From Candidatus Latescibacterota bacterium (GTDB lineage: Bacteria > Krumholzibacteriota > Krumholzibacteriia > WVZY01), in assembly GCA_963791045.1 (NCBI GenBank), contig CAWBQK010000009.1, positions 224,001 to 288,000 of the forward strand: a stretch of DNA of 64,000 nucleotides. The letters run 5' to 3'. Shown in pieces: positions 16,597 to 46,116 of the stretch. The notes beneath the pieces are model-generated. The model searched no databases. It saw nothing but the letters and a program-made list of their open reading frames with translations, and was not told the origin of the DNA. The position numbers and the translations under genes are program-made. Numbering within the stretch: position 1 is the stretch's first letter; each line of letters starts with the position of its first letter.

Positions 16597-16626
16597 TTGC
16601 CAATACGGGCCCGTTTGTGCTATTCT
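16597..16626 (+). promoter_or_regulatory. Putative sigma70 promoter of the arn operon
   Basis: TTGCCA-N18-TATTCT with TG extension. Confidence 0.4.
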
Positions 16627-16731
16627 TGGTGCAAGCGATTTTCTATCCTGTATATGACAAAGGGACCGTGCGATTCCCGTGAATCGTATGTAAACACCTG
16701 TATATCTCGCGACCGCTGGGGGTTCCGGACG

Positions 16732-17883: not shown

Positions 17884-17907
17884 AGTACATACACAAAACG
17901 GAACATC

Positions 17908-18915: not shown

Positions 18916-18926
18916 AGGATTCAAAA

Positions 18927-20939: not shown

Positions 20940-21006
20940 TGAAACGTCGATAGCTGTAATTCGAGTCGCGACTTCGTTTCAACCGCGAGCCCATTGAAAT
21001 TTGTCT

Positions 21007-21897
21007 ATGAGAATTGGCCTGAGAATTGATGTCGATACCCACCGGGGCACGCAAAGGGGCGTCCCGAATCTTCTGCGGCTGCTTGACGATCACCATATCG
21101 CGGCCACGTTCTTCTTCTCCGTCGGCCCCGACAATATGGGACGTCATCTCTGGCGGCTGCTTCGGCCGCAATTTCTCTTCAAAATGCTGAGAACGCGGGC
21201 GGCCAGTCTCTACGGCCCGGACATTATCCTCCGGGGGACATTCGGCCGCGGACCACTTCTCGGGGAAAAGTTCGGCGATATCATGAAAGCGGCCGCGGAC
21301 GCCGGGCACGAGGCGGGGCTGCACGACTGGGACCACTACACCTGGCAGACACATCTCGACAAGATGGACAGAAGCGTGATACGCGCCACACTAAAACAGG
21401 GTGTCGACACGCTCACGAGCATTCTCGGAACAACACCGGTGTGTTCGGCCGTTCCGGCCTGGAAATGCAACGATACGGTGCTTCTTGAAAAGAACAGATT
21501 CCCGTTCCGGTTCAACAGCGACTGCCGGGGGAAAAACGTCTTCCGGCCCGTCGTCGACGGAAAATCTCTCGACCAGCCCCAGATCCCGGTGACCCTACCG
21601 ACATACGATGAAGTGATCGGTCGCAACGGGATCAACAACAAAAACTTTAATCATTTTATGATCGAACAGCTCGACCTGAACGGTTTGAATGTGCTGACAA
21701 TTCACGCCGAATCCGAGGGCATATCCTGTCTGGGGCTCTTTAAAGAGTTCGTCGAAAAAGTCCAGTCACTTGGCGGATCGTTCTGTCCGTTGGGAGAACT
21801 CGTAGAACATGTCGAACCGCTTCCACGAGCGAGCGTGTCGCGGGGATCGCTTCCCGGCCGCGAGGGATGGCTTTCGCTTCAATCGCTCTATGAGTAG
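21007..21897 (+). CDS. arnD: Ara4FN deformylase
   Basis: GLRIDVDT.RGT..GVP, FFFSVGPDNMGRHLWRL, QIPVTLPTYDE. Confidence 0.92.
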   Translation: MRIGLRIDVDTHRGTQRGVPNLLRLLDDHHIAATFFFSVGPDNMGRHLWRLLRPQFLFKMLRTRAASLYGPDIILRGTFGRGPLLGEKFGDIMKAAADAGHEAGLHDWDHYTWQTHLDKMDRSVIRATLKQGVDTLTSILGTTPVCSAVPAWKCNDTVLLEKNRFPFRFNSDCRGKNVFRPVVDGKSLDQPQIPVTLPTYDEVIGRNGINNKNFNHFMIEQLDLNGLNVLTIHAESEGISCLGLFKEFVEKVQSLGGSFCPLGELVEHVEPLPRASVSRGSLPGREGWLSLQSLYE

Positions 21898-21918
21898 CGG
21901 CGTTTTTCGAACACCCAA

Positions 21919-23562
21919 ATGAATAAATCTCTTTCAATACTCGTTCTTCTTTTTGTCCTCGTGTATATGCTCCCCCTGGGTGCGCGGCTGTTTATTATCC
22001 CCGACGAAACCCGTTACGCTGAAATCCCGCGAGAAATGCTCGTGTCGGGAGACTGGATGTCTCCGCGTCTTGCGGGGGTCCGCTACTTCGAAAAACCCGT
22101 TCTCGGTTACTGGATGAACGCCGCGTCGATGGTGGTTTTGGGGGACAACCGATTCGCGGCGCGCCTGCCGTCCGTGTTGTCGGTTGGTCTGACGGCGCTT
22201 CTACTCCTCTTGTTCACAAGGCGTTTCACGGGCGACAGATTTGCCGGACCGCTCGCCGCGGCGGCGTTCCTGACGTGCCCGATGGTGTTTGCATTCGGAG
22301 TGTTCAATATTCTCGACAATGCGTTGACGTTGTACCTGACCGCCGCAATGGTGGCTTTCTTCTGTGCGCATACGGCCGACACGCGCCGTTCTCGATTAAT
22401 ATTCCTCGCCCTTTTTGGCGTGTCGTGCGCCGCCGCGTTTCTCACCAAGGGGTTTCTCGCATTTGCCATCCCCGTGGTTTCCATAATTCCCTTTATGTTG
22501 TGGGAGCGCCGATGGCGCGAATTCCTCACAATGCCGTGGATTCCGATCCTTGCCGTTCTCGTCGTCGCAGCGCCGTGGGCCATCGCGATCCATCTGCGCG
22601 AGCCGACGTACTGGCATTATTTCTTCTGGGTGGAGCACATCAGACGTTTTATGTCCGAAGGCGCGCAGCACCCGGAACCGTTTCATTTCTTTATCCCGCA
22701 CATCGCGTGGGGAATCCTCCCATGGCTCGCGCTCATTCCCGCCGCGGTCATGGGCTTCAATCGAGAGGACTTCAAGACGGCGCCGGTTCGGTTCGCCTTG
22801 TGCTGGTTTTTGTTTCCGTTTCTCTTCTTTTCGATGTCCGAGGGAAAAATCGCCACGTACATCCTGCCGTGTTTCCCGCCGCTCATTTTTCTCATCACGG
22901 TGGGGATCGTCGGATATATAGATAGCTGTCGGCGAAAAATGATCACCGCGGGGGTGTCCCTGCTCGCCTTATTGACCGGGGGCGCGGCGGTGGTCTTGCT
23001 TCTCAGCCAGTACACGGATTTCATGGGATTCAAGATTTACGAAGATCAGGAAGCGTCGAAGATTCTGATTCTCGGAGGTGGGATACTCGCGTGGGCGTTG
23101 ATCCTCCTGTCCGCACTCCGAGCCGGGACCACCCGGCGGGCGGTTGTGCTGTTTTGCGCCGCACCGGTGGTGGTGATGTTCGGCATGCACTTCATCTTCC
23201 CCATCGAGTTCGAAGGCAAAAAGATGCCGGGACGCTTTCTGGAGTCGAACGCCGGCCGGATCGGACCCCGGACGATCATCATCTCCGAAGGCGAACTTGC
23301 CGTCGCGGCATGCTACTACTACAAACGCGACGATGTTTATCTGTACAGGGGAAAGGGCGAACTCGCATGGGGGCTCGATTATGAAGACGCCGACGGACGC
23401 TTTCTGAGTGATGAAGATCTTCGCGAGCTCTTCGACACGTATCGCGGCGCAAGCCGGATCGTCCTCGTGGTCCGACGCGGCCACTACGAGGAGTACCGCG
23501 ACAAGTTCCCGCCTCCGGTCTACGAAGACACCTTCGGCCGCTTCACATTCGTAGAGTTCTAA
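21919..23562 (+). CDS. arnT: Lipid A 4-amino-4-deoxy-L-arabinose transferase
   Basis: PDETRYAEIPREM, RYFEKP, FLTKGFLA, YFFWVEHI, YILPCF; multi-TM. Confidence 0.92.
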   Translation: MNKSLSILVLLFVLVYMLPLGARLFIIPDETRYAEIPREMLVSGDWMSPRLAGVRYFEKPVLGYWMNAASMVVLGDNRFAARLPSVLSVGLTALLLLLFTRRFTGDRFAGPLAAAAFLTCPMVFAFGVFNILDNALTLYLTAAMVAFFCAHTADTRRSRLIFLALFGVSCAAAFLTKGFLAFAIPVVSIIPFMLWERRWREFLTMPWIPILAVLVVAAPWAIAIHLREPTYWHYFFWVEHIRRFMSEGAQHPEPFHFFIPHIAWGILPWLALIPAAVMGFNREDFKTAPVRFALCWFLFPFLFFSMSEGKIATYILPCFPPLIFLITVGIVGYIDSCRRKMITAGVSLLALLTGGAAVVLLLSQYTDFMGFKIYEDQEASKILILGGGILAWALILLSALRAGTTRRAVVLFCAAPVVVMFGMHFIFPIEFEGKKMPGRFLESNAGRIGPRTIIISEGELAVAACYYYKRDDVYLYRGKGELAWGLDYEDADGRFLSDEDLRELFDTYRGASRIVLVVRRGHYEEYRDKFPPPVYEDTFGRFTFVEF

Positions 23563-25742: not shown

Positions 25743-28700
25743 ATGACGCGCAAACGGATCGGACTGCTCGTACTGGTCGGTTCTCTGCTTCTTCTCCTTG
25801 TTGTTCCTCTATCACACGCAATCACAAACTCATACTTTGAAGATTTCACCACGACGGCCAAAAAAGATGGCGACTTCACCGACGCGTGGTGGGACACGGC
25901 GACCGGCAAACTCAAATTGAGGTCTTTCAACTCGTCGCTCGTCGGGTACTACATTACGTCGGAAAATGCGCTGGGCATCGACGTCGATGGGGATTACGCC
26001 TATGTCGCCGCGGGGAGTGAAGGGCTCATCGTGTTCGATATCACCACGAATACTCCTGGGCCGGGATACATCGGCGCGTACGACACGCCGGGGTCGGCCT
26101 GGGGCGTGAAAGCGGATGGAGACCTGGTTTACGTGGCGGATCTCAATACGGGGCTCATGGTAATCGATGTGACCGACCCGTCGACGCCGACACTGTACGG
26201 CAGCTACGACACGCCGGGATGGGCGCGCGACGTCGTTCTCGACGGCAAGTACGCATACGTCGCCGATGGAACCGACGGTGGAATCCAGGTTATCGACGTG
26301 AGCGACCCGTCGACGCCGGTCGGGATGGGAAGCTATAACACACCGGGGGAAGCGATCAGTGTCGACGTCAAAGGCCATTACGCGTACATCGCCGACCGCG
26401 GCTCGGGTCTTGTCGTGGTGGATATCGCGAACAAATCATGGCCGATACTTGCTGATTTCTATGATACGACCGGCGACTGCTGGGGCGTCGCCGTGTCCGG
26501 TGACTACGCATTCACTGGCAACGCGTTGCAGGGAATCCGCGTCTTCGACATCAGCAATCCACTCGACATCGGATATGTCACGACAATCACCCCGGCGGGA
26601 TCCCACCGGCGGTTGTCCGTCCAGGGGGATTACCTTTACGCCGCCGCGTACGGACAGCTCTACACTATTGATATCAACGACCCGTCCCTCCCCGTTGTCG
26701 TCGGCTCGTACACGTCCATGTATATCGCGACGACCGCTGTCGTCGACGGAGAACACGCATACGTGGCGGATGGGTCCGGGGGACTGAGGGTCCTCGATGT
26801 AAACGAATCGTTTCCGCCCTTCCGTATCGCGGAGCGAGCATCGACGGGCAGTTGCGAAGCGGTTCATGCCGAGGGCGACCTGTTGTACATGGTTCAATCA
26901 AGCGGCGCCACGCCGTTCAAGGTATTTGATATTCGCTTTCCCGACGGCCCCACTGAGATCGGGAGTTGTGATGTGGGCGGGTACGATTTGTTCGTGGCAG
27001 GCGACCTCGCTTACACAGCGGATGGGTCGTCCGGCCTCCAGATTGTAGACATTTCAGATCCTGTCAACCCGGTCGCGATCGGAAATTACAATACATCCGA
27101 CAACGCCACAGGCGTAGCCGTTCATGGGAATTATGCGTATGTCGCTGAAAACTTCGCGGGACTCCGGGTGATCGATGTTTCGGATCCGATGAATCCAAGC
27201 GTGGTCGGTACCTACAACACGCCTGACCGCGCAACTGACGTCGTGGTCAAAGGAAATCTCGCGTACGTCGCCGATGGGAGCAGCGGCCTCCAGATCATTG
27301 ACATATCGACACCGTCCAGCCCGACGCTGGTCGGATCGTACGATACGCCTGGGTTCGCGGTCGAACTCGCCGTCGCCGGAAACCTCGTGCTTGTCGCCGA
27401 CTCTGACGATGGACTGGCCGTCATCAAGGTATTGAATCCATCGGTTCCTCAACATCTTGCACAGATGTCCACGCCCGCGTGGGCGGTCTCGGTGGTAATT
27501 TCCGGCAACTACGCGTTTGTCGGAACTGGGGCGAGTGTTCAGCGGGTGGATATCCAAAACCCATCTTTTCCGACGCCTGTTGACGACGCGCCGGTCGATG
27601 ACTATGCGCGCGGACTGTGCGTATTCGGAGATTATATTTTTGTTGCGGACGCGGACGACGGACTCAAAACGTTCCGTGCTTTCCACCACAAATTCACAAA
27701 TGCCAACAGCGCCCGGTCGTACCCGGTCAACGATACGGACGATACAATCGTCCGTGCGCGGCTGACCACGACAGAGATCGAAATCATCGACTGGGAGTTG
27801 TCCTCCGACGGCGGCGGTCACTTCGAGTCGGCAGACCCCGGGGAATGGGTACGTTTTTCGTCGCCGGGCGCAAGCCTCGCCTGGCGCTCGACGCTCTTCC
27901 CGAAAGGCATGGGAACCCCCTATTGTTCGGAACTCACCCTCGATTGGCTCTACGAATTCCCCGCGATCGAGTACGTCGAAGACGTGCCCGATGATGAGGG
28001 AGGGACGGTCAAACTGAAATTTGCGCCATCGGGTTACGATTTTGCCGACGAAACCGAACACCCAATCGATGAGTACATCGTGTGGCGGCGAGTGTTGGAA
28101 ACAAGCACGGGGATCGAAACTTCATCGGCAAAAGAAAACCCCGCGTTCTTCGCGGAAATGCCGCCGGGAACCTGGGAAGAACAAATTACAATCACGGCCT
28201 CCAACGCCGCGGGACACATCTCGTATCTGAACACGGCGGTTGATCTCGGCGCCCCCGGCGCCGCCCCATCGGTCTTTGTCGTGTCCGCCCACACCGCGGA
28301 ACCTTCGACGTGGTGGGTAAGTCCGCCGGAGAGCGCGTATTCCGTCGACAATATCGCCCCGGCCGCTCCAACCAATTTCTCGGTAACGTACAACACACCC
28401 AAAGGCAACCACCTTCACTTCAGCCGGAGCGTGTCGCCAGACGTCCATTACCATGCGGTCTACCGTGGCGAGACCGAGGATTTCTCGATCGACGGACTCA
28501 CTCCCGTGACCAAACGAGGAGGCACGAACTGGGACGACCCGATCCTGGAAGGTTGGCGGTACCATTACAAAATCACCGCCGTCGACATTGCGGGCAACGA
28601 GAGCGACGCCGTCATGCCGGGGACCGTATCGGGAATCGACACTCCGGTTAACCCTGAGCATTTCGCTCTCCACGCCAACACGCCGAATCCGTTCAACCCG

Positions 28701-28937
28701 TCAACGGTCATCCACTATGATGTTCCCGCCGGCGGCGGACACGTGACAATCAAGGTGTATGACGTGACCGGACGATTTGTGCGATCGCTCGTCGCCGAGC
28801 ATCGCCCGGCGGGCACACACGAAATCGAGTGGGATGGAAACGACGGCAGCGGCGTAATGACATCAAGCGGTGTTTATTTTTGTCGTCTCGAAGCACGCGG
28901 AATCGTCCAGACGAGACGCATGGTTCTCTTAAAATAG
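25743..28937 (+). CDS. LVIVD-repeat secreted protein with Fn3-like and C-terminal FlgD/T9SS-like domain
   Basis: More than 10 repeats of G.YAYVAD..GL.V.D.SDP..P..VGSYDTPG; ends ANTPNPFNPSTVI...TRRMVLLK. Confidence 0.88.
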   Translation: MTRKRIGLLVLVGSLLLLLVVPLSHAITNSYFEDFTTTAKKDGDFTDAWWDTATGKLKLRSFNSSLVGYYITSENALGIDVDGDYAYVAAGSEGLIVFDITTNTPGPGYIGAYDTPGSAWGVKADGDLVYVADLNTGLMVIDVTDPSTPTLYGSYDTPGWARDVVLDGKYAYVADGTDGGIQVIDVSDPSTPVGMGSYNTPGEAISVDVKGHYAYIADRGSGLVVVDIANKSWPILADFYDTTGDCWGVAVSGDYAFTGNALQGIRVFDISNPLDIGYVTTITPAGSHRRLSVQGDYLYAAAYGQLYTIDINDPSLPVVVGSYTSMYIATTAVVDGEHAYVADGSGGLRVLDVNESFPPFRIAERASTGSCEAVHAEGDLLYMVQSSGATPFKVFDIRFPDGPTEIGSCDVGGYDLFVAGDLAYTADGSSGLQIVDISDPVNPVAIGNYNTSDNATGVAVHGNYAYVAENFAGLRVIDVSDPMNPSVVGTYNTPDRATDVVVKGNLAYVADGSSGLQIIDISTPSSPTLVGSYDTPGFAVELAVAGNLVLVADSDDGLAVIKVLNPSVPQHLAQMSTPAWAVSVVISGNYAFVGTGASVQRVDIQNPSFPTPVDDAPVDDYARGLCVFGDYIFVADADDGLKTFRAFHHKFTNANSARSYPVNDTDDTIVRARLTTTEIEIIDWELSSDGGGHFESADPGEWVRFSSPGASLAWRSTLFPKGMGTPYCSELTLDWLYEFPAIEYVEDVPDDEGGTVKLKFAPSGYDFADETEHPIDEYIVWRRVLETSTGIETSSAKENPAFFAEMPPGTWEEQITITASNAAGHISYLNTAVDLGAPGAAPSVFVVSAHTAEPSTWWVSPPESAYSVDNIAPAAPTNFSVTYNTPKGNHLHFSRSVSPDVHYHAVYRGETEDFSIDGLTPVTKRGGTNWDDPILEGWRYHYKITAVDIAGNESDAVMPGTVSGIDTPVNPEHFALHANTPNPFNPSTVIHYDVPAGGGHVTIKVYDVTGRFVRSLVAEHRPAGTHEIEWDGNDGSGVMTSSGVYFCRLEARGIVQTRRMVLLK

Positions 28938-31667: not shown

Positions 31668-31802
31668 ACGGCGGCACCCGCTCCGCTTTCGCCTATTGCG
31701 CCGGGCAACCCGACGTAGTATCTTCTCGCATGGGTTCGCGTGTCGGATGCGAGCCCCATTTTATGCCCACAATCGATCATGTGCCCGAACAAGGACCCCC
31801 GA

Positions 31803-33630
31803 ATGCCGAATCAAAGACGAAGAAAAGACGTCCGCAATGTAGCCATCATCGCCCATGTCGACCACGGCAAAACCACACTCGTCGACGCGCTGCTCAAGCA
31901 AACGGGCGCATATGATTTTCGCGATGGCGAAACCACAATCATGGATTCCAATCCCCTCGAAAGAGAACGTGGGATTACCATTTTCTCGAAGAATGCGTCC
32001 TTCATCTGGCGGGATACGACGTTCAACATCGTGGACACACCGGGGCACGCCGACTTTGGTAGCGAGGTCGAACGTATTCTCAAGATGGTCGATGGTGTGC
32101 TGCTCCTCGTCGATGCGTTCGAAGGTCCGATGCCGCAAACAAAATTCGTCCTCAAGAAATCACTCGAGCTTCACCTGAAACCCATCGTCGTCATCAACAA
32201 ACTCGATCGCCCCAATTCCAGGCCGGCCGAAGTGGCCGACATGACGTTCGATCTTTTTTGCGAATTGAACGCGACCGACGAACAGCTCGACTTCCCCATC
32301 GTCTACGCATCGGGCAAAGACGGTTATGCAAAATTCGAAATCGAGGATGACAATACCGACATAACGCCGCTTCTTGACACAATGTTTCACCGGGTGCTTC
32401 CACCCGTCGGGGATATCGAGAATGATTTCCAGATGCTGGTTACAATGATCGATTACGACAACTATGTGGGGCGTATCGCCGTCGGAAGGATCTCTCACGG
32501 AACGATCAGAACCAATGAACCGGTGGTCCTGGTCAAGCGCGACGGCAAACATGAACGCGGCAAGGTCACGAAGATCTTGAAATACCGCGGACTTCTCCGC
32601 GTCGAAACGGATATCGCGATGGCCGGAGATATCGTCTCGATCGCCGGGATGGAAAACGCCAAAGTCGGCTCCACAATCGCCGCGCCGGAAAACCCCGAGC
32701 TCGTTCCCATGGTCAAAATCGATGAGCCGACGATCTCGATGAATTTCTCGCACAACACGAGCCCGCTGACCGGCAAAGACGGTGGACGCTTTCTCACATC
32801 ACGTCATATCCGCGAACGGCTCCAACACGAAGCAATGATAAACGTCGGAATCCGCGTCGAGGAGACTCAGGGCGGAGAACGTTTCAAAGTGTCGGGGCGC
32901 GGCGAACTCCATCTGTCGATCCTCATAGAAACGATGCGGCGCGAGGGGTACGAAGTCGAGGTATCGCGTCCCGAGGTGATTCTCAAGAAAGTCGACGACG
33001 ATGTGCTCGAACCCGTCGAAGAGGTGGTGATCGAGGTCGATCCCGATTTCCAGGGTCCGGTAATGCAGGCGATCGGGCGAGCGCAAGGGCGACATCGAGA
33101 ACATCACGGTAAGCACCGTCGGAACGGTGCGGATTGAGTTCTACATTGCGTCGCGCGCGCTCATCGGTTTCCGCGGCGAGTTTTTGATGATGACGCGGGG
33201 AACGGGGATCATGTACCAGAATTTCTACCAGTATCAAAAATACAAGGGTGAGCTGCCCAAGCGGAAGACAGGCGTAATGGTGTCGATGAGCCCCGGCAAT
33301 GCCGTTGCCTACGCACTTTGGGGACTGCAGGAACGCGGTGAGATTTTCGCCCACCCGGGCGACGCCCTTTACGAGGGAATGATCGTGGGCGTCAACAACA
33401 AGGGCAGCGACATGGTGGTCAATGCGATTAAAGGCAAAAAGCTCACAAATATTCGCGCCGCCAGCGCGGACGATGCCATCCAGTTGACGCCGCCGCGCGA
33501 GATGACCCTGGAGTTTGCTTTGGAGTTCATTGCCGACGACGAACTCGTCGAGGTCACGCCGAAGAATCTCCGGCTGCGCAAGATGAACCTCACTGAAAAC
33601 GCGCGGAAGCAGGCGGCAAAAGGCCGCTGA
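31803..33630 (+). CDS. typA: Translational GTPase TypA/BipA; frameshift near 33080
   Basis: [53 protein letters not shown]. Confidence 0.95.
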
Positions 33631-37374: not shown

Positions 37375-37400
37375 GACGACCGAAGGGGGTGAGGGTTACA
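37375..37400 (-). promoter_or_regulatory. Putative ECF promoter TGTAAC-N16-CGTC
   Basis: Minus strand TGTAAC cctcacccccttcggt CGTC taa. Confidence 0.65.
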
Positions 37401-38700
37401 GTCCGGGGGGCAAAACCTCAAGAATTCCGTTCCGCCCACCAAATCCATCATTTACAATGAGTTTCGCCTCTGGAGGCGTGGTCCATTCGCCGTCAATAAT
37501 GTAGATATATTCGTATGTTCCCGGCGAGATTACGAGCCGCGCCTCCCACCAACCATCTGCGGCTCTCGAGAGCGCCGTTCCCGTGGAATTCCACTGGTTG
37601 AAGCTCCCCGCGACCGACACCGATTTCGCTCCTGGGGCCTTTATCCGGAAAACAACTCGATCATCAGGACCGGGCTGCTGAACCGAACCGGCGCTGTCCC
37701 GGGTCAGTGTCGCGATGTCCACTCGCGGCGGCGGCGCCGTTTTTGGGCGCCCCCACGCATACTGAAATCCTATGGCCATGCGATGGGTGTCCTCGTCGCT
37801 CCCATCCGTCCACGTATAGTTCGAGAACCCGTAGCGAACCAGGGCCGTCCACCCAGGGAGCATGTTGTATCGGAGTCCGATGCCCGCCGAGAGGTAGTCA
37901 TCTCGGTTCTCTCCCGTTGGCTGGTTGACAAACTCCCGTTCCTGGTATGTGCCTGAAACCGTCAAGAAAAGTGTCGAAACGATGCGCGTGTCGATGCTTC
38001 CCCCGAGTGTCCAGGAGTTCGAATTCGAATATGGATCGTTGGCCTCGGTACCCTGGAGAATACCATCCAATCGAACGCCCACCCGTTCGATCGGCGCCGT
38101 CCGTATAATGAGTCCGCCACTCCACCCAACCTCTTCGTACGACCCGGTCGTGTTGTGAGTAGTGGTGACTTCGAGGTTCGGGTAACTCCTGCCGCGAACA
38201 CCACCCCACAGTTCGGTGTTCCATTTTCGTCTGACCAGTCCGATGCCGAGTTCTCCACCGAGCCCAAGCCGGCGGATGGCGCTCCGCTCCGAGTCGTCGA
38301 AGTAGTCAAAGGAAGCAGAAAAGCGGCCTCGGAAACCCTTTCCAAAATTCTGGAGGAGATTTCCCCATACCGTTTGACCGTACAAAAAGCGGGATTCACT
38401 GTTGAAGTAGCGTTGGAGCGAGACAAATGTTCCGAAGTCGAGCAGCCCGCCGTTGCCGACAAATCCGCGGGCGGCGATGGCCGGCGTCAGTTCAATAAAC
38501 GCTCCACCGGGAACGATCGTCCGTGTTAACCCGGGATCGATCACCAGATCCGACTCGTCGCCGCCGGTGAAGCGCACCTCGGGGTTCACCCGCCACTGCG
38601 ACACCGCCGGCGTAACCGCCGCACACACGAAAACCGCTCCCACAAACAACAAGAGAGCGATTTTCAAAAGGTTGACTCGGACGGTCAAAATATTGACCAA
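37396..38700 (-). CDS. Outer-membrane beta-barrel-like protein with C-terminal glycogen-binding (CBM48/AMPK-beta-like) domain
   Basis: Signal peptide, alternating beta-strand pattern, then APGAKSVSVAGSFNQW...PGTYEYIYIIDGEW...DGFGGRNG; start approximate. Confidence 0.75.
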   Translation of the reverse strand: MVNILTVRVNLLKIALLLFVGAVFVCAAVTPAVSQWRVNPEVRFTGGDESDLVIDPGLTRTIVPGGAFIELTPAIAARGFVGNGGLLDFGTFVSLQRYFNSESRFLYGQTVWGNLLQNFGKGFRGRFSASFDYFDDSERSAIRRLGLGGELGIGLVRRKWNTELWGGVRGRSYPNLEVTTTHNTTGSYEEVGWSGGLIIRTAPIERVGVRLDGILQGTEANDPYSNSNSWTLGGSIDTRIVSTLFLTVSGTYQEREFVNQPTGENRDDYLSAGIGLRYNMLPGWTALVRYGFSNYTWTDGSDEDTHRMAIGFQYAWGRPKTAPPPRVDIATLTRDSAGSVQQPGPDDRVVFRIKAPGAKSVSVAGSFNQWNSTGTALSRAADGWWEARLVISPGTYEYIYIIDGEWTTPPEAKLIVNDGFGGRNGILEVLPPGL

Positions 38701-38701
38701 C

Positions 38702-39412
38702 TCACAGCTCCACATCAATAACGGCGTTCGTACCGCCAAACCCATCGTCACGTGTTTGAACGGCAAGCGGGTCGGTGACCCAGCGCTCACCGTCCTCGAT
38801 AAACATGTACTCGTAACTTCCCGGCGGGAGAACGAGGATCGTACTCCACGCGCCGCCCTGCTTCACCAGCGGTGTGACGTCCGGATTCCAGTTGTTAAAA
38901 TTCCCCACCACCGTCACCCGCTTCACATCGGAAGATGACGAAACGTAGGCAAACCGGACATATTGATAACCGTCATCCGACGCGCCCGCCTGGCTTACGA
39001 ATGTCGGTGACGCGTCTTCCATGACAACTTCCATCGACTGAGATGCGTCCTCCTGTGTGAGCGGCCCGATGTCGCGGTTGATTCCCGCCCACCATCCTCC
39101 GACGTAGGCAACAATGGCGACGGCGGCGGCCGCGGCGAGTCCGATCCATCGTGTATTTCGGTCAGCTCGTTTTTGGCGGATGATTACCGGGCGTTCATCG
39201 TCGGCGGCGACACTCTTCATCACCCGTTCGGTGAAGCCTTTCGGCGCGCCAGGTGTTGGAAGGGTCTTGCCGAGCACGAGCAGTTGTTCGTATGCGCGGA
39301 GGTCCTTCGCCAGTGCGGGATCTTCCCCGACCCTGTCGAGAAACTCGCGTGCTTCGCGCTCATCGAGGTCACCATCAAAATAACGTGCCAGCAGGGCGTC
39401 CATCGTTCTCAC
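38702..39412 (-). CDS. Anti-sigma factor with TM helix and extracytoplasmic glycogen-binding-like domain
   Basis: LLARYFDGDLDERE anti-sigma-type N-terminus, TM WIGLAAAAAVAIVAYVGGWW, VTVVGNFNNW...PPGSYEYMF...DDGFGGTNA. Confidence 0.8.
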   Translation of the reverse strand: MRTMDALLARYFDGDLDEREAREFLDRVGEDPALAKDLRAYEQLLVLGKTLPTPGAPKGFTERVMKSVAADDERPVIIRQKRADRNTRWIGLAAAAAVAIVAYVGGWWAGINRDIGPLTQEDASQSMEVVMEDASPTFVSQAGASDDGYQYVRFAYVSSSSDVKRVTVVGNFNNWNPDVTPLVKQGGAWSTILVLPPGSYEYMFIEDGERWVTDPLAVQTRDDGFGGTNAVIDVEL

Positions 39413-39418
39413 CTTTCC

Positions 39419-40051
39419 TCATTCCACGATGTCTTCGGGTGTCATCCGCGTTGCATCGGGAAAAAGCTTATCTTTTAAAATAGCGCGGGCGCGGTGCGCC
39501 CTCACTTTGAGCGAACCAACCGTGTCGCCGGTAATCTTACTGATTTCGTCGTATGGAATATTCTGTATATGGTGAAGGACGAACACTTCGCGGTACCCGG
39601 GGGGGAGTTCCTGGAGCGCGGTTTCGAGTTGCTTTCGCATCTCGCGCTCGCTGATCTCGGCAAGGGGATCGTACTGCGGACGCCTGTCCTCGAGTACCGC
39701 CGTATCCGTGTCCTGTTCCAGCAACGCGTCTAGCGACACCACATTGGACCGCTTGCGCGCCCGGATGTGATCCCGGGCGAGATTGACGGCGATCTGGATG
39801 AGCCAGGTACCAAATTGCGACTGGCCCCTGAAGCCGTCGAGCCCCCGGTAGGCGCGGACAAACGCCTCGTGCGCGAGTTCTTCGGCGACCTGGCCATCAG
39901 CCATCAGCCGAAGAAGAACGCCGTACACACGATCCTTGTGACGGTTGACCAGGGTCGCAAATGCTTCCCTGTCACCGGCTTGAACTGCCTTGACTGTTGT
40001 CTGGTCGTTATTGGTCATAATCCGATCGCCATCTTGAAAGATAGGGTCCAT
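39419..40051 (-). CDS. ECF RNA polymerase sigma factor
   Basis: GDREAFATLV, AEELAHEAFVRAY, FGTWLIQIAVN, LPPGYREVFVL, GSLKVRAHRAR; start at 40051 or 40018. Confidence 0.9.
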   Translation of the reverse strand: MDPIFQDGDRIMTNNDQTTVKAVQAGDREAFATLVNRHKDRVYGVLLRLMADGQVAEELAHEAFVRAYRGLDGFRGQSQFGTWLIQIAVNLARDHIRARKRSNVVSLDALLEQDTDTAVLEDRRPQYDPLAEISEREMRKQLETALQELPPGYREVFVLHHIQNIPYDEISKITGDTVGSLKVRAHRARAILKDKLFPDATRMTPEDIVE

Positions 40052-40058
40052 CAGGTTG

Positions 40059-40084
40059 GACGACCAGAAGCATACAGGGTTACA
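40059..40084 (-). promoter_or_regulatory. Putative autoregulatory ECF promoter TGTAAC-N16-CGTC
   Basis: Minus strand TGTAAC cctgtatgcttctggt CGTC caacctg ATG. Confidence 0.65.
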
Positions 40085-40820
40085 ACACTTTTTCTCGACT
40101 ATTTTCTGGTGCGTCCGGTTGGGGGCCGCCCGACGCCGAACCGTTCTTGACCTGGAACTCGAGCTGCTCGACTTTGTCGAGAAGCACCTCGAGCACACGG
40201 ACATCGTGATCGCCTTTACTCTCGCTGAGATTGACGTCCATTTTACGCGGCGCGCCATCGCGCTTGCGGTCGAGGACACGGCCGACAAGTCCAACCACGG
40301 TGGCGCCGGCAGGAACGTCCTTCACGACAATCGCGCCCGCGCCGATGCGCGCATCATCGTCAACGGTGACCGCACCGAGCACTTTGGCGCCGGCACCGAC
40401 CACGACGCCATTGCCAAGCGTCGGATGCCGCTTCTTTTTCTCGAGACTCGTTCCCCCCAATGTGACCGCCTGGTACAACGTAACATCGTTGCCGATCTCC
40501 GTGGTCTCGCCAATAACCACACCCATGCCATGATCGATAAAGAAACGTCTGCCGATCGTGGCGCCCGGGTGGATCTCGATCCCGGTGAGCGCGCGATTGA
40601 CATGGCTCAGCAGCCGGGCAAGGAGCCGTATGTTCGACGTCCACAATCGGTGCGCGATCCGGTGCATGACGATCGCGTGGAGGCCCGGATAGCAGAGAAT
40701 GACTTCGAGAACGCTTCGCGCCGCGGGATCCCGCCGGAAAATCGTCCGTATGTCTTCCGCGATTCTCGCGAACGGACCGGAGCGCCCGGCGGTCTGTGTG
40801 GTGTCGTGTACGTGTTCCAT
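40080..40820 (-). CDS. cysE: Serine O-acetyltransferase
   Basis: [40 protein letters not shown] hexapeptide repeats. Confidence 0.95.
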
Positions 40821-40837
40821 TGTAGTCTCCTCTGACC

Positions 40838-41800
40838 CTATGATGTTTGTGCGGCGGTTTTCTGGTCTTCTTCGAACTGAAAAAGCGGTGTCGACAGATA
40901 CCGCTCACCGGTGTCGCAGAGTATGGTCACAATTAGCTTGCCCGCGTTTTCGGGGCGCTTCGCCACCTCGACGGCGGCGTGAACATTGGCTCCCGCCGAA
41001 ATGCCCGCGAGGATTCCCTCGGAGCGTGCGAGCTCGCGCGCCATTGCGAACGCTTGTTCGTTGGTAACCTGCACTATTTCATTAATGATTTCAGTGTTGA
41101 GCACGCCGGGGATAAATCCCGCTCCGATCCCCTGGATCTTGTGCGGTCCGGGCGCGCCACCCGAGATGACCGGTGAATCGACTGGTTCTACGGCGATGGC
41201 CTGAAACGCTGGGTTGCGCTCGCGGATAACTTCGGTCACTCCGGTAATGGTCCCGCCGGTGCCGACTCCAGCGACGAAAATATCGACCTTGCCGTCGGTG
41301 TCTATCCAGATTTCCTCGGCCGTCGTGCGTCTGTGTACTTCGGGGTTCGCCGGATTCTCGAACTGCTGGAGGATCACGGCGCCGGGGGTTCGTTCGGCGA
41401 TAACGCCGGCTTCGGCGATGGCGCCCTTCATCCCATCAGCCCCGGGTGTGAGGATCAACTCGGCGCCAAGCGCGCGCAGCATGTTGCGCCGTTCGACACT
41501 CATGGTGTCGGGCATCGTGAGAATCAACCGGTAACCCTTGGCGGCGGCGACAAACGCGAGCGCGATTCCCGTGTTGCCGCTGGTCGGTTCGACGAGCACC
41601 GTCTCGCCGGGACGGATGCGGCCGTCGCGCTCGGCGGTCTCGACCATGCTGACGCCGATCCGGTCCTTAACGCTCGAAAGAGGGTTGCAGAATTCGGCCT
41701 TCCCGAGGACACGACCGCCGCCCTTTGGCGAGAGACGCCCCAGTTCGATAAGCGGCGTTCGCCCGATAGCCTGTGTGATGTCAGAGAAAATCCGTCCCAT
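40838..41800 (-). CDS. cysK: Cysteine synthase A
   Basis: [17 protein letters not shown] (PLP Lys), [32 protein letters not shown]. Confidence 0.96.
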
Positions 41801-41841
41801 TTTGTTGATTCCTTTCGAGTGTCGTTCGACGAGTCTGTGGC

Positions 41842-41871
41842 AAAAAAAAACCCGCGGCAAGGCCGCGGGTT
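41842..41871 (-). terminator. Attenuator terminator in the cysK leader
   Basis: Minus strand AACCCGCGGC-CTT-GCCGCGGG followed by T9, about 40 nt upstream of the cysK ATG. Confidence 0.88.
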
Positions 41872-41900
41872 GGTATTCGTTCGAATGATATTAAAGTACT

Positions 41901-41984
41901 CTATTCGATAATAAATACACCCCGGCCCATGGCGCTTCTACAAGCGCAACAACAGCAGCAGAATTCTTGGGTTCGGGACGTCAA
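41901..41984 (-). CDS. Putative Cys-rich leader peptide, 27 aa: MTSRTQEFCCCCCACRSAMGRGVFIIE
   Basis: TTG start after AAAAGG; TGC TGC TGT TGT TGC GCT TGT; lies between a sigma70 promoter and the terminator. Confidence 0.8.
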   Translation of the reverse strand: MTSRTQEFCCCCCACRSAMGRGVFIIE

Positions 41985-42015
41985 ATTATCGCCTTTTTCG
42001 ATAGATGTTTGATTA

Positions 42016-42044
42016 AGTATATAGGTATCGGAAGGCATTGTCAA
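42016..42044 (-). promoter_or_regulatory. Sigma70 promoter for leader-cysK-cysE
   Basis: TTGACA-N17-TATACT on the minus strand. Confidence 0.85.
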
Positions 42045-42078
42045 GCCGCCTGGGGCGATTTGCCATGTGAATCGGTTA

Positions 42079-42981
42079 TCAAGCGTTCGTCGGCAGCGGC
42101 TTCTGACGGCGCCGCTCGTGGAACACACCCATCACACCCAGAACGATGAGCACCGATCCGCCGATCGTCCACCGCGTGATCGGTTCGTCGAGGAGCACGC
42201 GGCCAAGCAACACCGCGACGACAGGATTCACATAGGCGTACGTCATCACGATGTTGGTGGGCAGGAGACGGAGCGCTTTTACAAATGATGTGAAAGCAAA
42301 AACCGACCCAAAGATGACGAGATACCCCCACGCAACCCATGCTTCCGGAATCGGTGTCGGTGCCGGTTCGTTTACAAGGAGCGCCACCGTAAATAGTCCG
42401 ATCCCCCCGAACATATGCTGATATCCTGAACTCACTTCGGGTCCGAGCGAGAGCGCCTTTCGTTTCTGGAAAATCGCGCCCATCCCCCAAAAAACCACGG
42501 CGGCGATTATCGCAATGGCGGCAAAAATATCCAGGATGTTGCCGGCAAGAATCACGGGGCCGTTCAACACGCCGACACCGACAAGACCGACAAGGAGTGC
42601 GCCGAGGAGACGAAGCGACGGAGGTCGCCTGTCGACAATCGCTTCCATAATGGTCACCCAGATGGGAAGCGCACCGACGAGAAGCGCCGCGTAGCCCGAA
42701 TCCGCCCGTCGTTCCGCCCACGACACCAGACCGTTCCCTCCCACCCACAGAAGAACCCCCGATACGGCGAGCACGCCGAGTTCACGCTTGCCAACCTTGA
42801 GGTTTTCTTTGGAGAGTTTCGCCCATGCAAAAAGAATGATGCACGCGGCAAAGACACGCATCCCCGCCATCGTAAACGCGGGAAACCCGGAGCCGTCGCG
42901 TACCGCGACACGAATCGCGAGGTACGTGCTTCCCCACACGATGTAGACAACGATGAGATGAAATATTCCACGGAGGTTCAC
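42079..42981 (-). CDS. EamA/DMT family transporter
   Basis: VYIVWGSTYLAIR, YLVIFGS, YAYVNPVVAVLLG; about 10 TM helices. Confidence 0.9.
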   Translation of the reverse strand: MNLRGIFHLIVVYIVWGSTYLAIRVAVRDGSGFPAFTMAGMRVFAACIILFAWAKLSKENLKVGKRELGVLAVSGVLLWVGGNGLVSWAERRADSGYAALLVGALPIWVTIMEAIVDRRPPSLRLLGALLVGLVGVGVLNGPVILAGNILDIFAAIAIIAAVVFWGMGAIFQKRKALSLGPEVSSGYQHMFGGIGLFTVALLVNEPAPTPIPEAWVAWGYLVIFGSVFAFTSFVKALRLLPTNIVMTYAYVNPVVAVLLGRVLLDEPITRWTIGGSVLIVLGVMGVFHERRRQKPLPTNA

Positions 42982-42998
42982 GCGGTGGAGCCTAGTCG

Positions 42999-43673
42999 TT
43001 AATAGGTGTTGATAAATGTCTCTGTGTCGATGACCGTGGCGTAATTGCCGCCCAGGGTTTTCAGGGTCGAGAGATGGACATCCACGGAGTCGATTACTTT
43101 GTCGTCATACTCTAAGGAACGTGTCGCGCACGCATCACCCACCAGGATACATTCGAAACCGAGATCGTAGGCAGCCCGGACGGCGCCCTCGACACACATG
43201 TGTGTCTGCATCCCACAGATCACCAGACGATCGATGCCGGCGCCCTTGAGATAGTCGAGAAGGTCCGTGCCGTTGAACGCGCTGACCTCATCCTTCATTA
43301 CAACCTTCTCGCCGTCGATCGGTACGACGTCCGGATGAAAGTCTCCACCTTTGGACACATTGTGCCCAACATGAACGACGGTGAGGTTCCCACCTCTGAA
43401 TTTCTCGATCAGCTTTTTGCAGTTGGCGCTCGCCTTTTCGGGCTCGGCGAGCGGCATGAATCCGTCTGGAAAATAGAAGGCCTGGACGTCTATGACGACA
43501 AGCGCCGTCTTCGCATCCAACGGCCGGGGCCCTTCCGCGTCGGCGGCGACCGCCGCGGCGGGGATTGCGGCGAGAACCAACATGAAAACCGCGACGACCA
43601 TCGTCTTTAGCTTCCGGATTCGCGCGAACCCTCGTGTTTGCCCATCGATAAATTGAATTGGCTTGTTTTTCAT
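42999..43673 (-). CDS. Cysteine hydrolase (isochorismatase family) with N-terminal hydrophobic segment
   Basis: ALVVIDVQ, K...SAF.GTDL, ICGMQTHMCV, DACAT. Confidence 0.85.
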   Translation of the reverse strand: MKNKPIQFIDGQTRGFARIRKLKTMVVAVFMLVLAAIPAAAVAADAEGPRPLDAKTALVVIDVQAFYFPDGFMPLAEPEKASANCKKLIEKFRGGNLTVVHVGHNVSKGGDFHPDVVPIDGEKVVMKDEVSAFNGTDLLDYLKGAGIDRLVICGMQTHMCVEGAVRAAYDLGFECILVGDACATRSLEYDDKVIDSVDVHLSTLKTLGGNYATVIDTETFINTY

Positions 43674-43990
43674 TTTTTGCCTCTTAGCGCCGTCGCGCCC
43701 GCCGACTTCGTTGGAGATTTCCCGGGGGCAGTTTGTGATGGGGCCCCCCTCGCGCCCCATCGTACCAGAAAACCCCAAACGGTCAAGGAAGGTACTCCGT
43801 CGGACAACTTATCGACTCGTCGTCGGACTCTCCCGTGATTGAACGTCCTTTAATGGACGGCCGGGGGCGTAATGTGGTATCTTCGCTTCGGCGCATGCTC
43901 CTCTCCGACACCCTGCATCCCAGCTATACCACCTGCCGGACGGGAGCCTTCCTTTTTGGAAAACTCAAACTGTTGACGGAAGGATTACCG

Positions 43991-45451
43991 ATGGGCGGCT
44001 TTTTTGGTGTTGCTTCAAGAGAAGACTGTATCACAAGCCTCTTTTATGGAACCGACTACCACAGTCATCTCGGCACCAAACGCGGCGGACTAGCGACGAC
44101 GAACGGGGGAGGCTTTGTCAGGTACATCCACGACATCACAAACGCCCAGTTCCGGAGCAAATTCGAAACGGACATTCAGTCTATGAAAGGCCGCCTGGGT
44201 ATCGGTGTCATTAGCGATTACGAAGACCAGCCGCTTCTCATCAACTCGCATCTCGGGAGCTATGCAATCGTGACCGTTGGCGTTGTCAAAAACGCGGACG
44301 AACTCGTTCGAAAAGCGTTCAGCAAACGAGGTGTTCATTTCTCGGAAATGAGCGGGGAGGAGATCAACCCGACCGAGCTGGTGGCGTCACTCATAGACCA
44401 GGAAGAGAGTTTTGTAGAAGGAATCAAGAACGCGCAATCGCATATCGAGGGCTCGTGCTCCATATTGCTCCTCACAAAGGACGGCATCTACGCGGCGAGA
44501 GACAAGCTGGGACGGACGCCGGTAATTGTTGGCGAGGGCCCCGAGGGGTATGCCGCGACGATGGAAACATGCGCCTTCCCCAACCTGGGGTTTAAAACCA
44601 CAAAGTATCTGGGACCCGGCGAAACCGTGCTCATGACCCCCGACGGCATCGAACAGAAAACCCCGCCGGGGCCTGACATGCAGATCTGTAGTTTTCTCTG
44701 GGTGTATTATGGTTACCCCGCGTCAAGCTACGAGGGCTTGAATGTCGAGGCGGCGCGTTACCGGTGCGGCGCCGCGCTTGCCGACGCCGACAATGTTGAA
44801 ATCGATTACGTGGCAGGCGTCCCCGACTCGGGCACCGCCCACGCGCTCGGCTATTCCGACCGTGCAAACGTCCGCTACCGCAGACCGTTTGTCAAATACA
44901 CGCCGACTTGGCCGCGAAGTTTTATGCCGCAAAACCAGTCGATCCGTGACCTGGTTGCAAAAATGAAACTCATCCCGATCCAGGAACTCACCGAGGGGCA
45001 GAGGCTTCTCTTTTGTGAGGACTCCATCGTCCGAGGAACCCAACTCAAAGACACCATACAGAGGATGTACGAGTACGGGGCGAAAGAAGTCCACATGCGC
45101 CCCGCGTGCCCACCGCTAGTATTCGGCTGCAAATTCCTCAACTTCTCGCGTTCGCGTTCCGAACTCGATCTTGCCGGAAGAAAAGCGATCGCCGAAATGG
45201 AAAACGGCAGGGAACCCAATCTCGACGAATACACCGATGAAACATCGGACAAGTACCATGCGATGGTCGACCGGATCGGAGAAACCATCGGCGTGACATC
45301 GCTTAAGTATCAAAAGCTCGATGACATGGTGAAAGCAATCGGGGTCGCCCGGGAGAAGGTCTGCACCTACTGCTGGAACGGCTGCGACAAACCTGGAATC
45401 TGCAGCGCGCCCGTGGATGAATCGCGGGCGGCGGTCACGGAAGAATTGTAA
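43991..45451 (+). CDS. purF: Amidophosphoribosyltransferase variant lacking the N-terminal Cys
   Basis: MGGFFG start, GVPDSG, EDSIVRGT PRPP-binding motif, RPACPP, CTYCW. Confidence 0.88.
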   Translation: MGGFFGVASREDCITSLFYGTDYHSHLGTKRGGLATTNGGGFVRYIHDITNAQFRSKFETDIQSMKGRLGIGVISDYEDQPLLINSHLGSYAIVTVGVVKNADELVRKAFSKRGVHFSEMSGEEINPTELVASLIDQEESFVEGIKNAQSHIEGSCSILLLTKDGIYAARDKLGRTPVIVGEGPEGYAATMETCAFPNLGFKTTKYLGPGETVLMTPDGIEQKTPPGPDMQICSFLWVYYGYPASSYEGLNVEAARYRCGAALADADNVEIDYVAGVPDSGTAHALGYSDRANVRYRRPFVKYTPTWPRSFMPQNQSIRDLVAKMKLIPIQELTEGQRLLFCEDSIVRGTQLKDTIQRMYEYGAKEVHMRPACPPLVFGCKFLNFSRSRSELDLAGRKAIAEMENGREPNLDEYTDETSDKYHAMVDRIGETIGVTSLKYQKLDDMVKAIGVAREKVCTYCWNGCDKPGICSAPVDESRAAVTEEL

Positions 45452-45540
45452 CCATGTTGCGGGCACCGGAGTCAGAACGGGCCCTGACTTGCATCACAAC
45501 ATCGAGAGTCGTTGACCCCACGCACCGGAACCAAAACAGA

Positions 45541-45586
45541 GAACCCCGTAACGGAACTCGGCACTCGAGCCCCGCTACGGGGTTTC
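45541..45586. terminator. Hairpin between convergent genes
   Basis: AACCCCGTA...TACGGGGTT. Confidence 0.5.
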
Positions 45587-45612
45587 TTCAAACAAAGTGA
45601 GGAGCAGCGGGG

Positions 45613-46116
45613 CTACGGCCCCATCGACAACAGACCGTCACTCTCGAGAAACGTCTTCGCGTCCTCAGAGTTTCGCATCTCGATCTGATTCCATTCGGCC
45701 TCGAGAATCGCGTAGTGGCTCTTCTCCATATTGGCCATGTATGTCAAAACCTGCCGGGCATTGAGGTCATTTGTCTTCTGGGCGAGACTCGAGTAAAACT
45801 CCTCGGCCATTTTCTCCGCCGTCATTCCGGCATCAAAGAGTTCCTTGAGACTCGCTTCCCTGCTAAGGACCTCATCGATCATCGGGACGATCGATTTGGG
45901 CGGCAGGGCAAGATCAACCTCGGGGAATTTCTTGTTGTAAACTTCCGTCAAGATCTGCTCGTGTTTTTCTTCCTGTGAAATCAAGAAGGCCATTTTTTCC
46001 TTGAGATCGTCCGCGTCGACGACTTCCTTCATTCTTGTGTAGAGCTTCACAGCGTCGATCTCGGATTTGATCGCGATGCTCAGGACCTCCAGAGTGGTGA
46101 GATCGTCTTTTGCCAT
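45613..46116 (-). CDS. Rubrerythrin/ferritin-like di-iron protein
   Basis: AIKSEIDAVKLY, EEKH, AEKMAEEFY, EKSH. Confidence 0.85.
   Translation of the reverse strand: MAKDDLTTLEVLSIAIKSEIDAVKLYTRMKEVVDADDLKEKMAFLISQEEKHEQILTEVYNKKFPEVDLALPPKSIVPMIDEVLSREASLKELFDAGMTAEKMAEEFYSSLAQKTNDLNARQVLTYMANMEKSHYAILEAEWNQIEMRNSEDAKTFLESDGLLSMGP

Follow-up and report, generated by a model that had tools for sequence, protein, structure and literature searches.

Leader-peptide attenuators are described in enterobacteria for the trp, his, leu, thr, phe, and ilv operons (excerpts of 10.1101/834739). For cysteine, poly-Cys leader open reading frames (ORFs) are described in Actinobacteria, where they precede the cys operons of Mycobacterium, P. 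acnes, and B. longum, come without terminators, and have been proposed to depend on Rho (Seliverstov et al., excerpts of PMC1262725). Excerpts of Canestrari et al. (10.1101/834739) report leaderless polycysteine small ORFs (sORFs) in mycobacteria, one of them before cysK1-cysE in M. tuberculosis; these act by translational attenuation, the transcriptional reporter being insensitive to cysteine, and cysteine attenuation mediated by an upstream ORF (uORF) is stated there to be previously undescribed. Regulatory Cys codons are also marked in M. tuberculosis leaders in a passage of PMC13236596. In Rhodobacterales, Brewer et al. (2021) predicted before cysS the uORFC-8-2 motif, which combines two tandem Cys codons with a terminator (excerpts of PMC8632094). 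Finally, passages on a flavobacterium mention "strong clues" for leader-peptide attenuation before amino-acid operons, the amino acids not being named in them (PMC9723704), and a passage on Bacteroides mentions sORFs within long 5' untranslated regions (UTRs; PMC7366714). Here we analyze a 64,000-nt stretch of DNA, probably from an uncultured candidate phylum of the FCB group (hereafter the window), in which a poly-Cys leader lies upstream of the genes cysK and cysE. We consider this leader probably to be a ribosome-mediated leader-peptide transcription attenuator that couples the expression of cysK-cysE to the supply of charged tRNA-Cys. An earlier note on this DNA had proposed such an attenuator. 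Its remark that poly-Cys leaders are known mainly from Actinobacteria agrees with the reports above. Its remark that no classical intrinsic-terminator Cys attenuator was known in this lineage has to be read next to the uORFC-8-2 prediction, which, as excerpted, already puts a terminator-type Cys sensor in print, before cysS in Rhodobacterales (PMC8632094).

All the elements of the attenuator are on the minus strand and are given in window coordinates (Table 1). Promoter, start codon, Cys-rich ORF, and antiterminator/terminator follow one another in the correct order inside 203 nt, directly upstream of cysK-cysE, and four individually rare features are properly lined up ahead of two cysteine-synthesis genes. 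The identification of these genes as cysK and cysE in the earlier note was right, as both score above the cut-offs of the respective profiles. The Shine-Dalgarno (SD) sequence of cysK, AAAGGAA at 41815-41809, stands 9 nt ahead of the ATG at 41800, and cysE, with the SD sequence GAGGAG, starts 17 nt past the cysK stop codon. A spacer of 41 nt separates the terminator from the cysK ATG. When we scanned positions 38000-46000 we found no promoter within this spacer, which is too short for cysK to have a separate one there. On the other side of the leader, the stop codon of an EamA-family gene (42079) precedes the -35 box by 35 nt, and the scan of the same region revealed no other terminator from that stop codon to 41871.

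Table 1. Features of the cysK-cysE leader and adjacent genes, in window coordinates
Feature	Coordinates	Strand	Details
EamA-family (DMT) transporter gene	42079-42981	minus	upstream neighbour, stop at 42079; best NCBIfam match, YedA, is sub-cut-off
Sigma-70-type promoter	42016..42044	minus	-35 TTGACA 42044-42039, 17-nt spacer, -10 TATACT 42021-42016
Shine-Dalgarno-like AAGG	41992..41995	minus	7 nt ahead of leader TTG
Leader ORF	41901..41984	minus	LTSRTQEFCCCCCACRSAMGRGVFIIE, initial Met from the TTG; 27 sense codons followed by TAG at 41903-41901
Region 1	41969..41981	minus	ACGUCCCG..ACCC, 5' arm of the putative 1:2 hairpin round the Cys codons
Regulatory codons	41940..41960	minus	TGC TGC TGT TGT TGC GCT TGT, six Cys in codons 9-15
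Region 2	41913..41930	minus	GGGCCGGGGUGUAUUU, in 3' part of leader ORF; partner region 1 or region 3
Antiterminator inner hairpin	41881..41908	minus	UCGAAU.AG ... CAUUCGA
Region 3	41860..41878	minus	GAAUACCAACCCGCGGCCU; pairs with region 2 (antiterminator) or, via 41871-41862, with region 4 (terminator)
Intrinsic terminator	41842..41871	minus	stem AACCCGCGGC/GCCGCGGGUU, loop CUU, stem-loop 41871-41849, T9 run 41850-41842
cysK (cysteine synthase A)	40838..41800	minus	320 amino acids; TIGR01139, 449.3 bits vs cut-off 350.95
cysE (serine O-acetyltransferase)	40080..40820	minus	246 amino acids; TIGR01172, 244.5 bits vs cut-off 210.65

The run of Cys codons is one of the rare features. The 27-codon ORF with six Cys in seven positions, as previously claimed, is present, with Cys at codons 9-13 and 15 and 12 codons after the last of them. 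Nowhere else in the 64 kb, whichever of the six frames is read, do at least five, or at least six, of seven stop-free codons encode Cys. First-order Markov simulations (n=100) produced a mean of 0.03 clusters at the lower threshold (at least 5/7) and 0.0 at the higher (at least 6/7). As a control with real DNA we used the six frames of 507,625 bases round 80 other cysK genes, which contain 44 clusters of at least 4/7, 5 of at least 5/7, and a single one of at least 6/7. The latter lies in a poly-Cys leader, of known type, from a Mycobacterium (locus L079). The leader uses TGC and TGT three times each, and ten confident genes use them 37 and 26 times, respectively; there is thus no evident bias toward a rare codon.

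The signals expected for transcription and translation of this ORF precede it. The TTGACA-N17-TATACT promoter reported earlier at 42044-42016 matches at 11 of 12 positions. It is the best of the 7 promoter-like sites in 38000-46000 and the sole 11/12 match there (50 shuffles of this region gave a mean of 2.9 sites, standard deviation 1.5). Over the whole window and both strands, 7 sites reach at least 10/12 and just 2 reach 11/12 (42044 and 5441, both on the minus strand). Given the usual promoter spacing, transcription would start at about 42009, and this geometry predicts a 5' UTR of ~25 nt that includes the SD sequence. The claimed SD and TTG start at 41984 were also recovered, with AAGG as the SD (41995-41992) at a spacing of 7 nt, and this TTG (41984-41982) is the sole canonical start in the Cys frame downstream of the predicted transcription start. 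The genome makes moderate use of SD-like motifs, which are found ahead of 11 of 50 long ORFs taken from their first ATG, and at a control position in 5 of 50. An in-frame ATG occurs within the promoter spacer (42036-42038, minus strand) and opens a 45-codon ORF with the Cys run in the same frame. Since either start (the TTG at 41984, or the ATG at 42038 when transcription runs on from the EamA gene) keeps the Cys run, the regulatory logic would be the same.

The ORF is followed by an RNA segment with two mutually exclusive folds. The first is the terminator, which the earlier note had described as a GC-rich hairpin with U9 (41871-41842) about 40 nt before cysK, and which we find to have a stem of 10 pairs, 8 of them G-C, a loop of 3, a hairpin energy of -19.3 kcal/mol, and a T9 run. 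Its pairs have a probability of 0.998 in the full leader. Strong terminator sites are scarce, with 3 distinct ones on both strands of the window (45584, 41871, and 9359); there are only two runs of at least eight T, of which that of the leader is the longer and the sole T9. The hairpin sequence has no second copy in the window. The other two strong terminator-like hairpins lie at 45584-45542 and 9359-9333, both on the minus strand, and the former, with a stem of 19 bp, comes shortly after the ORF at 45613-46116.

The second fold is the antiterminator. The previously proposed pairing of GGCCGGGGUGUAUU (41927-41914) with AAUACCAACCCGCGGCC (41877-41861), enclosing a UCGAAU/AUUCGA hairpin, was reproduced as both the minimum-free-energy (MFE) structure and the centroid of the segment 41932-41858 folded alone, with -26.2 kcal/mol and a z-score of -4.01 (0 of 200 shuffles). 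It comprises 16 pairs between 41928-41913 and 41878-41860, round the inner hairpin at 41908-41881, whose 5' arm coincides in part with the end of the leader ORF (its final two sense codons plus the first stop-codon base). The duplex between regions 2 and 3 (2:3) has an energy of -22.5 kcal/mol, which 4 of 1000 shuffled versions of region 3 reach. Of the 10 bases in the terminator's 5' arm the antiterminator ties up 9, together with two bases of the loop, and the two structures thus exclude each other, as the earlier note had said. The full leader (42010-41835) folds with -52.6 kcal/mol (z -2.26, 2 of 200 shuffles) into a long 1:2 hairpin round the Cys codons, a small hairpin, and the terminator. 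In this MFE structure the SD stretch of the leader (41993-41985) pairs with the last leader codons (41913-41905, CGAUAAU/AUUAUCG). According to this folding model, such a pairing could restrict translation to the first ribosome.

From the observed elements, their rarity, their alternative pairings and the energies of these, we infer the use of the TTG, ribosome stalling, an order of folding and a regulatory outcome, which would be as follows. Transcription would begin at the strong promoter, at ~42009, and a ribosome would load at AAGG/TTG (41984) to translate the 27-codon leader. When Cys-tRNA is scarce, the ribosome would stall on the six Cys codons (41960-41940), covering region 1 and leaving region 2 (41930-41913) free. 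The newly made region 3 (41878-41860) would then pair with region 2 into the 16-bp antiterminator with its inner hairpin, which would hold the 5' arm of the terminator and let the polymerase read through into cysK-cysE. When Cys-tRNA is plentiful, the ribosome would proceed to the UAG at 41903, melt the inner hairpin, and cover the 3' half of region 2; behind the ribosome, the 5' half of region 2 could be taken up again by region 1. The 10-bp hairpin with its U-run would then form, and transcription would stop near 41843, yielding a leader RNA of ~165 nt.

We evaluated this scheme by folding, with the ribosome modelled as a masked footprint of 30 nt and the MFEs compared with pairing of region 4 either allowed or forbidden. 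In the full leader the terminator is favoured by 12.2 kcal/mol without a ribosome and by 15.2 kcal/mol with a ribosome at the stop codon; the advantage falls to 4.9, 9.4, and 8.0 kcal/mol with the A site on Cys1, Cys3, and Cys6, respectively. Stalling thus shrinks the advantage of the terminator without inverting it, and the switch must therefore be kinetic and co-transcriptional. The trp leader, too, is understood in this way in textbooks. When the transcript ends at 41862 or 41858, so that region 3 has been made and region 4 has not, the full antiterminator is the MFE structure with the ribosome at Cys1, Cys3, or Cys6. With the ribosome at the stop codon, transcripts of the same lengths retain only a 10-bp long-range remnant that spans the ribosome, and the assumed footprint covers the 3' half of region 2 and the inner hairpin. 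The masked and unmasked folds suggested in the earlier note are favourable to its model in the truncated transcripts and unfavourable at equilibrium.

Several results weigh against the attenuator. At equilibrium, the MFE of the full leader retains the terminator under every ribosome mask. The 1:2 hairpin, although part of the MFE structure, is not beyond chance (z -1.23, 23 of 200 shuffles), and the 1:2 duplex, with -16.0 kcal/mol, is matched by 68 of 1000 shuffles. Without a ribosome, 2:3 pairing beats an enforced 1:2 pairing by 3.3 kcal/mol when the transcript ends at 41862 and by 4.4 kcal/mol when it ends at 41858, so that untranslated transcripts might read through. With the footprint that we assumed, a ribosome at the stop codon narrowly misses the 5' half of region 2 (41930-41922), which is rich in G+C. 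The leader starts with TTG and has an SD of merely 4 nt. No Rfam family matches the leader. Searches of protein collections with the leader ORF gave nothing usable, and comparison with other cysK loci brings no support, since 79 of the 80 loci (the best 80 of at least 599, see below) are without a comparable leader.

The last two points call for some detail. Neither the 27- nor the 45-residue form of the leader peptide matches a family in Pfam or NCBIfam, and the plus-strand ORFs over the leader have no family either (best E-value 0.042, sub-cut-off). A word-indexed search with the leader ORF among the proteins of 24-79 residues in a collection of 5.8 billion proteins returned no candidate. 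An exhaustive HMMER search of 1.84 billion cluster representatives gave a single hit, to 11 stretches of a repetitive protein of 843 amino acids, which we dismissed as low complexity. Since short ORFs are seldom called as genes, these null results do not count against conservation of the leader.

The comparison set consists of the best 80 of at least 599 confirmed CysK loci (from at least 600 pattern matches), with 59-71% CysK identity; they span many phyla, and none is titled Krumholzibacteria or Eisenbacteria. The 79 negative loci accordingly tell that the element is not widespread, and nothing more. Within the 500 nt upstream of cysK, at least 3 Cys in 6 codons were found in 19 instances from 18 of these 80 loci, with a maximum of 3 save in L079. 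Twelve of the 80 were re-examined with criteria for a start codon and a terminator, and the leader of L079 was the only one found. Five clusters of at least 5/7 occur in the 80 loci. Those of L079 (Mycobacterium; ~2560-2690, plus strand) and L055 (an uncultured actinomycete; ~1480-1560, plus strand) are homologous leaders of the actinobacterial type, which share a conserved leader peptide; 9 Cys in the former and 5 in the latter run up to the stop codon. We saw no hairpin with a U-run after either. In L055 the dense Cys ORF is 1.47 kb upstream of cysK, and an ORF of up to ~450 codons intervenes. The clusters of L069, L067, and L003 were dismissed as leaders because they are out of frame in apparent coding stretches. 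A blastn-short search of the best 80 loci with the leader returned no hit at E <= 1. Synteny is also limited in this set: cysE is near cysK in 11 of the 80 loci, and none of the 80 has matches to the sigma factor, anti-sigma factor, EamA, isochorismatase, PurF-like, or 464-amino-acid genes of the window.

Closer relatives of the CysK protein exist among metagenome sequences, at 90-91% (P0003-P0005), 85% (P0006), and 82-83% (P0007-P0009) identity, and the nearest named ones are from Candidatus Eisenbacteria (P0035 and P0044, 77-78%). We considered over-long CysK calls as a source of upstream DNA (29 of the 120 listed relatives) and discarded them, as the differences in length are nearly all C-terminal and the N-terminal extensions of P0014 and P0107 are uninformative.

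Other explanations of the locus were weighed against the attenuator. The Cys ORF may sense cysteine in the mycobacterial manner, by acting on the translation of cysK through sequestration of its SD or through Rho polarity, with the hairpin and U-run being incidental or a leaky pause. Translational control is the sole mode experimentally shown for Cys leaders in the excerpts of 10.1101/834739, and the MFE structure of the read-through transcript does pair 41980-41956 with the initiation region of cysK, leaving its SD just 0.48 unpaired. Yet this pairing (-19.5 kcal/mol) is matched by 122 of 1000 shuffles and equalled or bettered by 2 of 15 other initiation regions of the window, and we dismissed the sequestration of the cysK ribosome-binding site by the leader as no better than chance; the Cys tract itself reaches only -8.0 kcal/mol against that site. 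Moreover, the ORF is led by an SD instead of being leaderless, its Cys run is in the middle and not at the stop codon, and a near-ideal terminator with a matched antiterminator would be left unexplained, all of which makes this explanation very unlikely. We rate as improbable, by a shade less, that the leader is an independent small gene, encoding a Cys-rich peptide (metal- or redox-active, or akin to ribosomally synthesized and post-translationally modified peptides, RiPPs) or a small RNA, with cysK-cysE dependent on leak-through or transcribed from another place. The ~165-nt unit does have a strong promoter at one end and a strong terminator at the other, and the sub-threshold Rfam matches are mainly to small-RNA families; those matches, however, are far below the gathering scores and rest on the terminator, and the ORF has no Pfam or NCBIfam family and no related small protein in the collections searched. 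Under this explanation the 41-nt spacer would offer cysK no promoter of its own, and the complementarity of region 2 to the terminator arm would have no role.

The hairpin and U-run might instead terminate the EamA gene (stop at 42079), the Cys-rich ORF being a chance intergenic frame. The fact that no other terminator lies between the EamA stop and 41871 favours this possibility, which is nevertheless hardly plausible: a 6/7 Cys cluster arises in 0 of 100 simulations and once in 0.5 Mb of real DNA, an 11/12 promoter intervenes between the EamA stop and the terminator, just 4 of 1000 shuffles match the 2:3 complementarity, and cysK would again lack a promoter. Least credible of all is a terminator/antiterminator switch governed by the binding of a protein or a small ligand, with the ORF untranslated. 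The preference for 2:3 pairing at the decision point without a ribosome would fit such a switch, as would the TTG start and the short SD, but no Rfam family reaches its gathering score, we found no ligand- or protein-binding element in the leader, and the run of Cys codons before cysteine genes would be a coincidence. None of these explanations accounts for the co-location of all these rare features before cysteine-synthesis genes, which the ribosome-mediated attenuator does.

The neighbourhood of cysK-cysE was also annotated. E. coli EamA exports cysteine and O-acetylserine, and a functional tie between the EamA-family gene upstream and cysK-cysE is thus possible. Immediately downstream of cysE (37396-40294, minus strand) there follow, in this order, an extracytoplasmic function (ECF) sigma factor, an anti-sigma factor, and a 464-amino-acid protein. 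The C-terminal domain of the anti-sigma factor is of the CBM48/AMPK1_CBM type, and the 464-amino-acid protein, besides a weak match of the porin type, carries this domain too. No strong terminator lies between cysE and the ECF sigma gene in the window. A link to thiol stress through the anti-sigma factor was dismissed, as this protein has zero Cys and carries the CBM48-type domain.

Elsewhere in the window, typA (31740-33630, plus strand) is split by a frameshift, judged against the 608-amino-acid relative P0123: residues 1-429 of the latter align within 31803-33089, and residues 425-608 within 33076-33627, which is read in a different frame. An error of assembly or sequencing would account for the split, or else typA is a pseudogene. 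The TypA protein shares 84-86% identity with P0126 and P0183, both labelled Candidatus Krumholzibacteria, and 83% with P0182 (Candidatus Krumholzibacteriia); the DNA appears to stem from a candidate phylum of the FCB group, most likely Krumholzibacteriota. A cluster of the arn type for lipid A modification with 4-amino-arabinose, with ArnB-like, ArnA, and ArnT-like proteins, occupies 16597-23562 (plus strand); the arnA ORF starts 183 codons before the start of the profile and overlaps the preceding ORF, and its true start is thus probably later. A protein of 1064 amino acids (25743-28937, plus strand) has no NCBIfam match at E <= 1e-40. Its look-alikes in the Atlas (score 0.80, to be taken as a lead only) are proteins with the C-terminal sorting domain of the type IX secretion system (T9SS), from Krumholzibacteriota (the commonest), Ignavibacteriota, and Eiseniibacteriota.

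Cysteine synthesis is usually described as being under the control of proteins (CysB, CymR) or of a T-box. To our knowledge, the proven Cys leader ORFs are only mycobacterial and translational, and we know of no cis-regulation described in the phylum of the window. We found no description of an intrinsic-terminator attenuator on cysK or cysE in the open-access literature searched, although older comparative-genomics papers behind subscriptions may hold one. There is a little less than an even chance that this leader is the first classical intrinsic-terminator attenuator of a cysteine biosynthetic operon and, at the same time, the founder of a family conserved in Krumholzibacteriota and neighbouring candidate phyla of the FCB group, having arisen independently of the actinobacterial poly-Cys ORFs, whose output is different. 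If so, it would add a "missing" amino acid to the trp/his/leu/thr/phe/ilv set of attenuators, would mean that the textbook trp-style mechanism serves cysteine too and arose outside Proteobacteria and Actinobacteria, and would be the first cis-regulatory element for this uncultured phylum. It would also offer a compact and portable part, responsive to cysteine or Cys-tRNA, for reporters. The understanding of attenuation itself would be unchanged, as the leader is a testable example and not a new mechanism.

How the leader relates to the known families can be stated more precisely. In Rfam 15, the window has 0 matches at the gathering thresholds, T-box included. Over 41780-42100 there are 22 sub-threshold matches, driven by the terminator and mostly to small-RNA families, the best being MicF (24.9 bits vs a gathering score of 79); among the amino-acid leaders, Leu_leader (RF00512) scores 18.3 vs 50 and Trp_leader (RF00513) 17.8 vs 41. 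The Cys-specific T-box of Firmicutes binds uncharged tRNA directly, without translation. The leader resembles it in responding, as we propose, to the charging of tRNA-Cys and in choosing between terminator and antiterminator before cysteine genes, but the T-box is absent also from the 22 sub-threshold matches over the leader. The uORFC-8-2 motif, as far as its excerpted description goes (PMC8632094), is likewise a predicted ribosome-mediated attenuator with a Cys-codon uORF and an intrinsic terminator. It differs in preceding cysS in alphaproteobacteria, with two tandem Cys near position 14-15 and a two-stem consensus, whereas our leader precedes cysK-cysE and has six Cys in codons 9-15. The two are set apart by gene context and Cys codons, and not by a published structural model; the Rfam scan gave no uORFC-8-2 match to the leader, the presence of the motif in Rfam 15 being unchecked.

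The actinobacterial leaders and that of the window have in common a short upstream ORF, consecutive Cys codons, cysteine genes downstream, and a Cys-tRNA signal presumably read by the ribosome. Their leader peptides, in contrast, are dissimilar. The actinobacterial ORFs are leaderless, whereas that of the window is led by an SD; their Cys run is C-terminal, at the stop codon (L079 and L055), whereas here 12 codons follow the last Cys; and they have no terminator hairpin and are controlled at the level of translation, whereas here there is a canonical terminator with an antiterminator. With the enteric attenuators the leader shares the promoter, the short SD-led ORF, the run of end-product codons in mid-ORF, the 2:3/3:4 regions with a candidate 1:2 pairing, the G+C-rich hairpin with a U-run just before the first structural gene, and the length of the leader RNA of ~165 nt. 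It departs from them in the amino acid (cysteine), the genes (cysK-cysE), the host (probably of an uncultured FCB-group candidate phylum), the TTG start, and the weak 1:2 element, and it resembles none of them in sequence or by covariance model. By analogy with these two groups, the cysK-cysE leader probably joins a cysteine-sensing input like that of Actinobacteria to a terminator output like that of the enteric operons.

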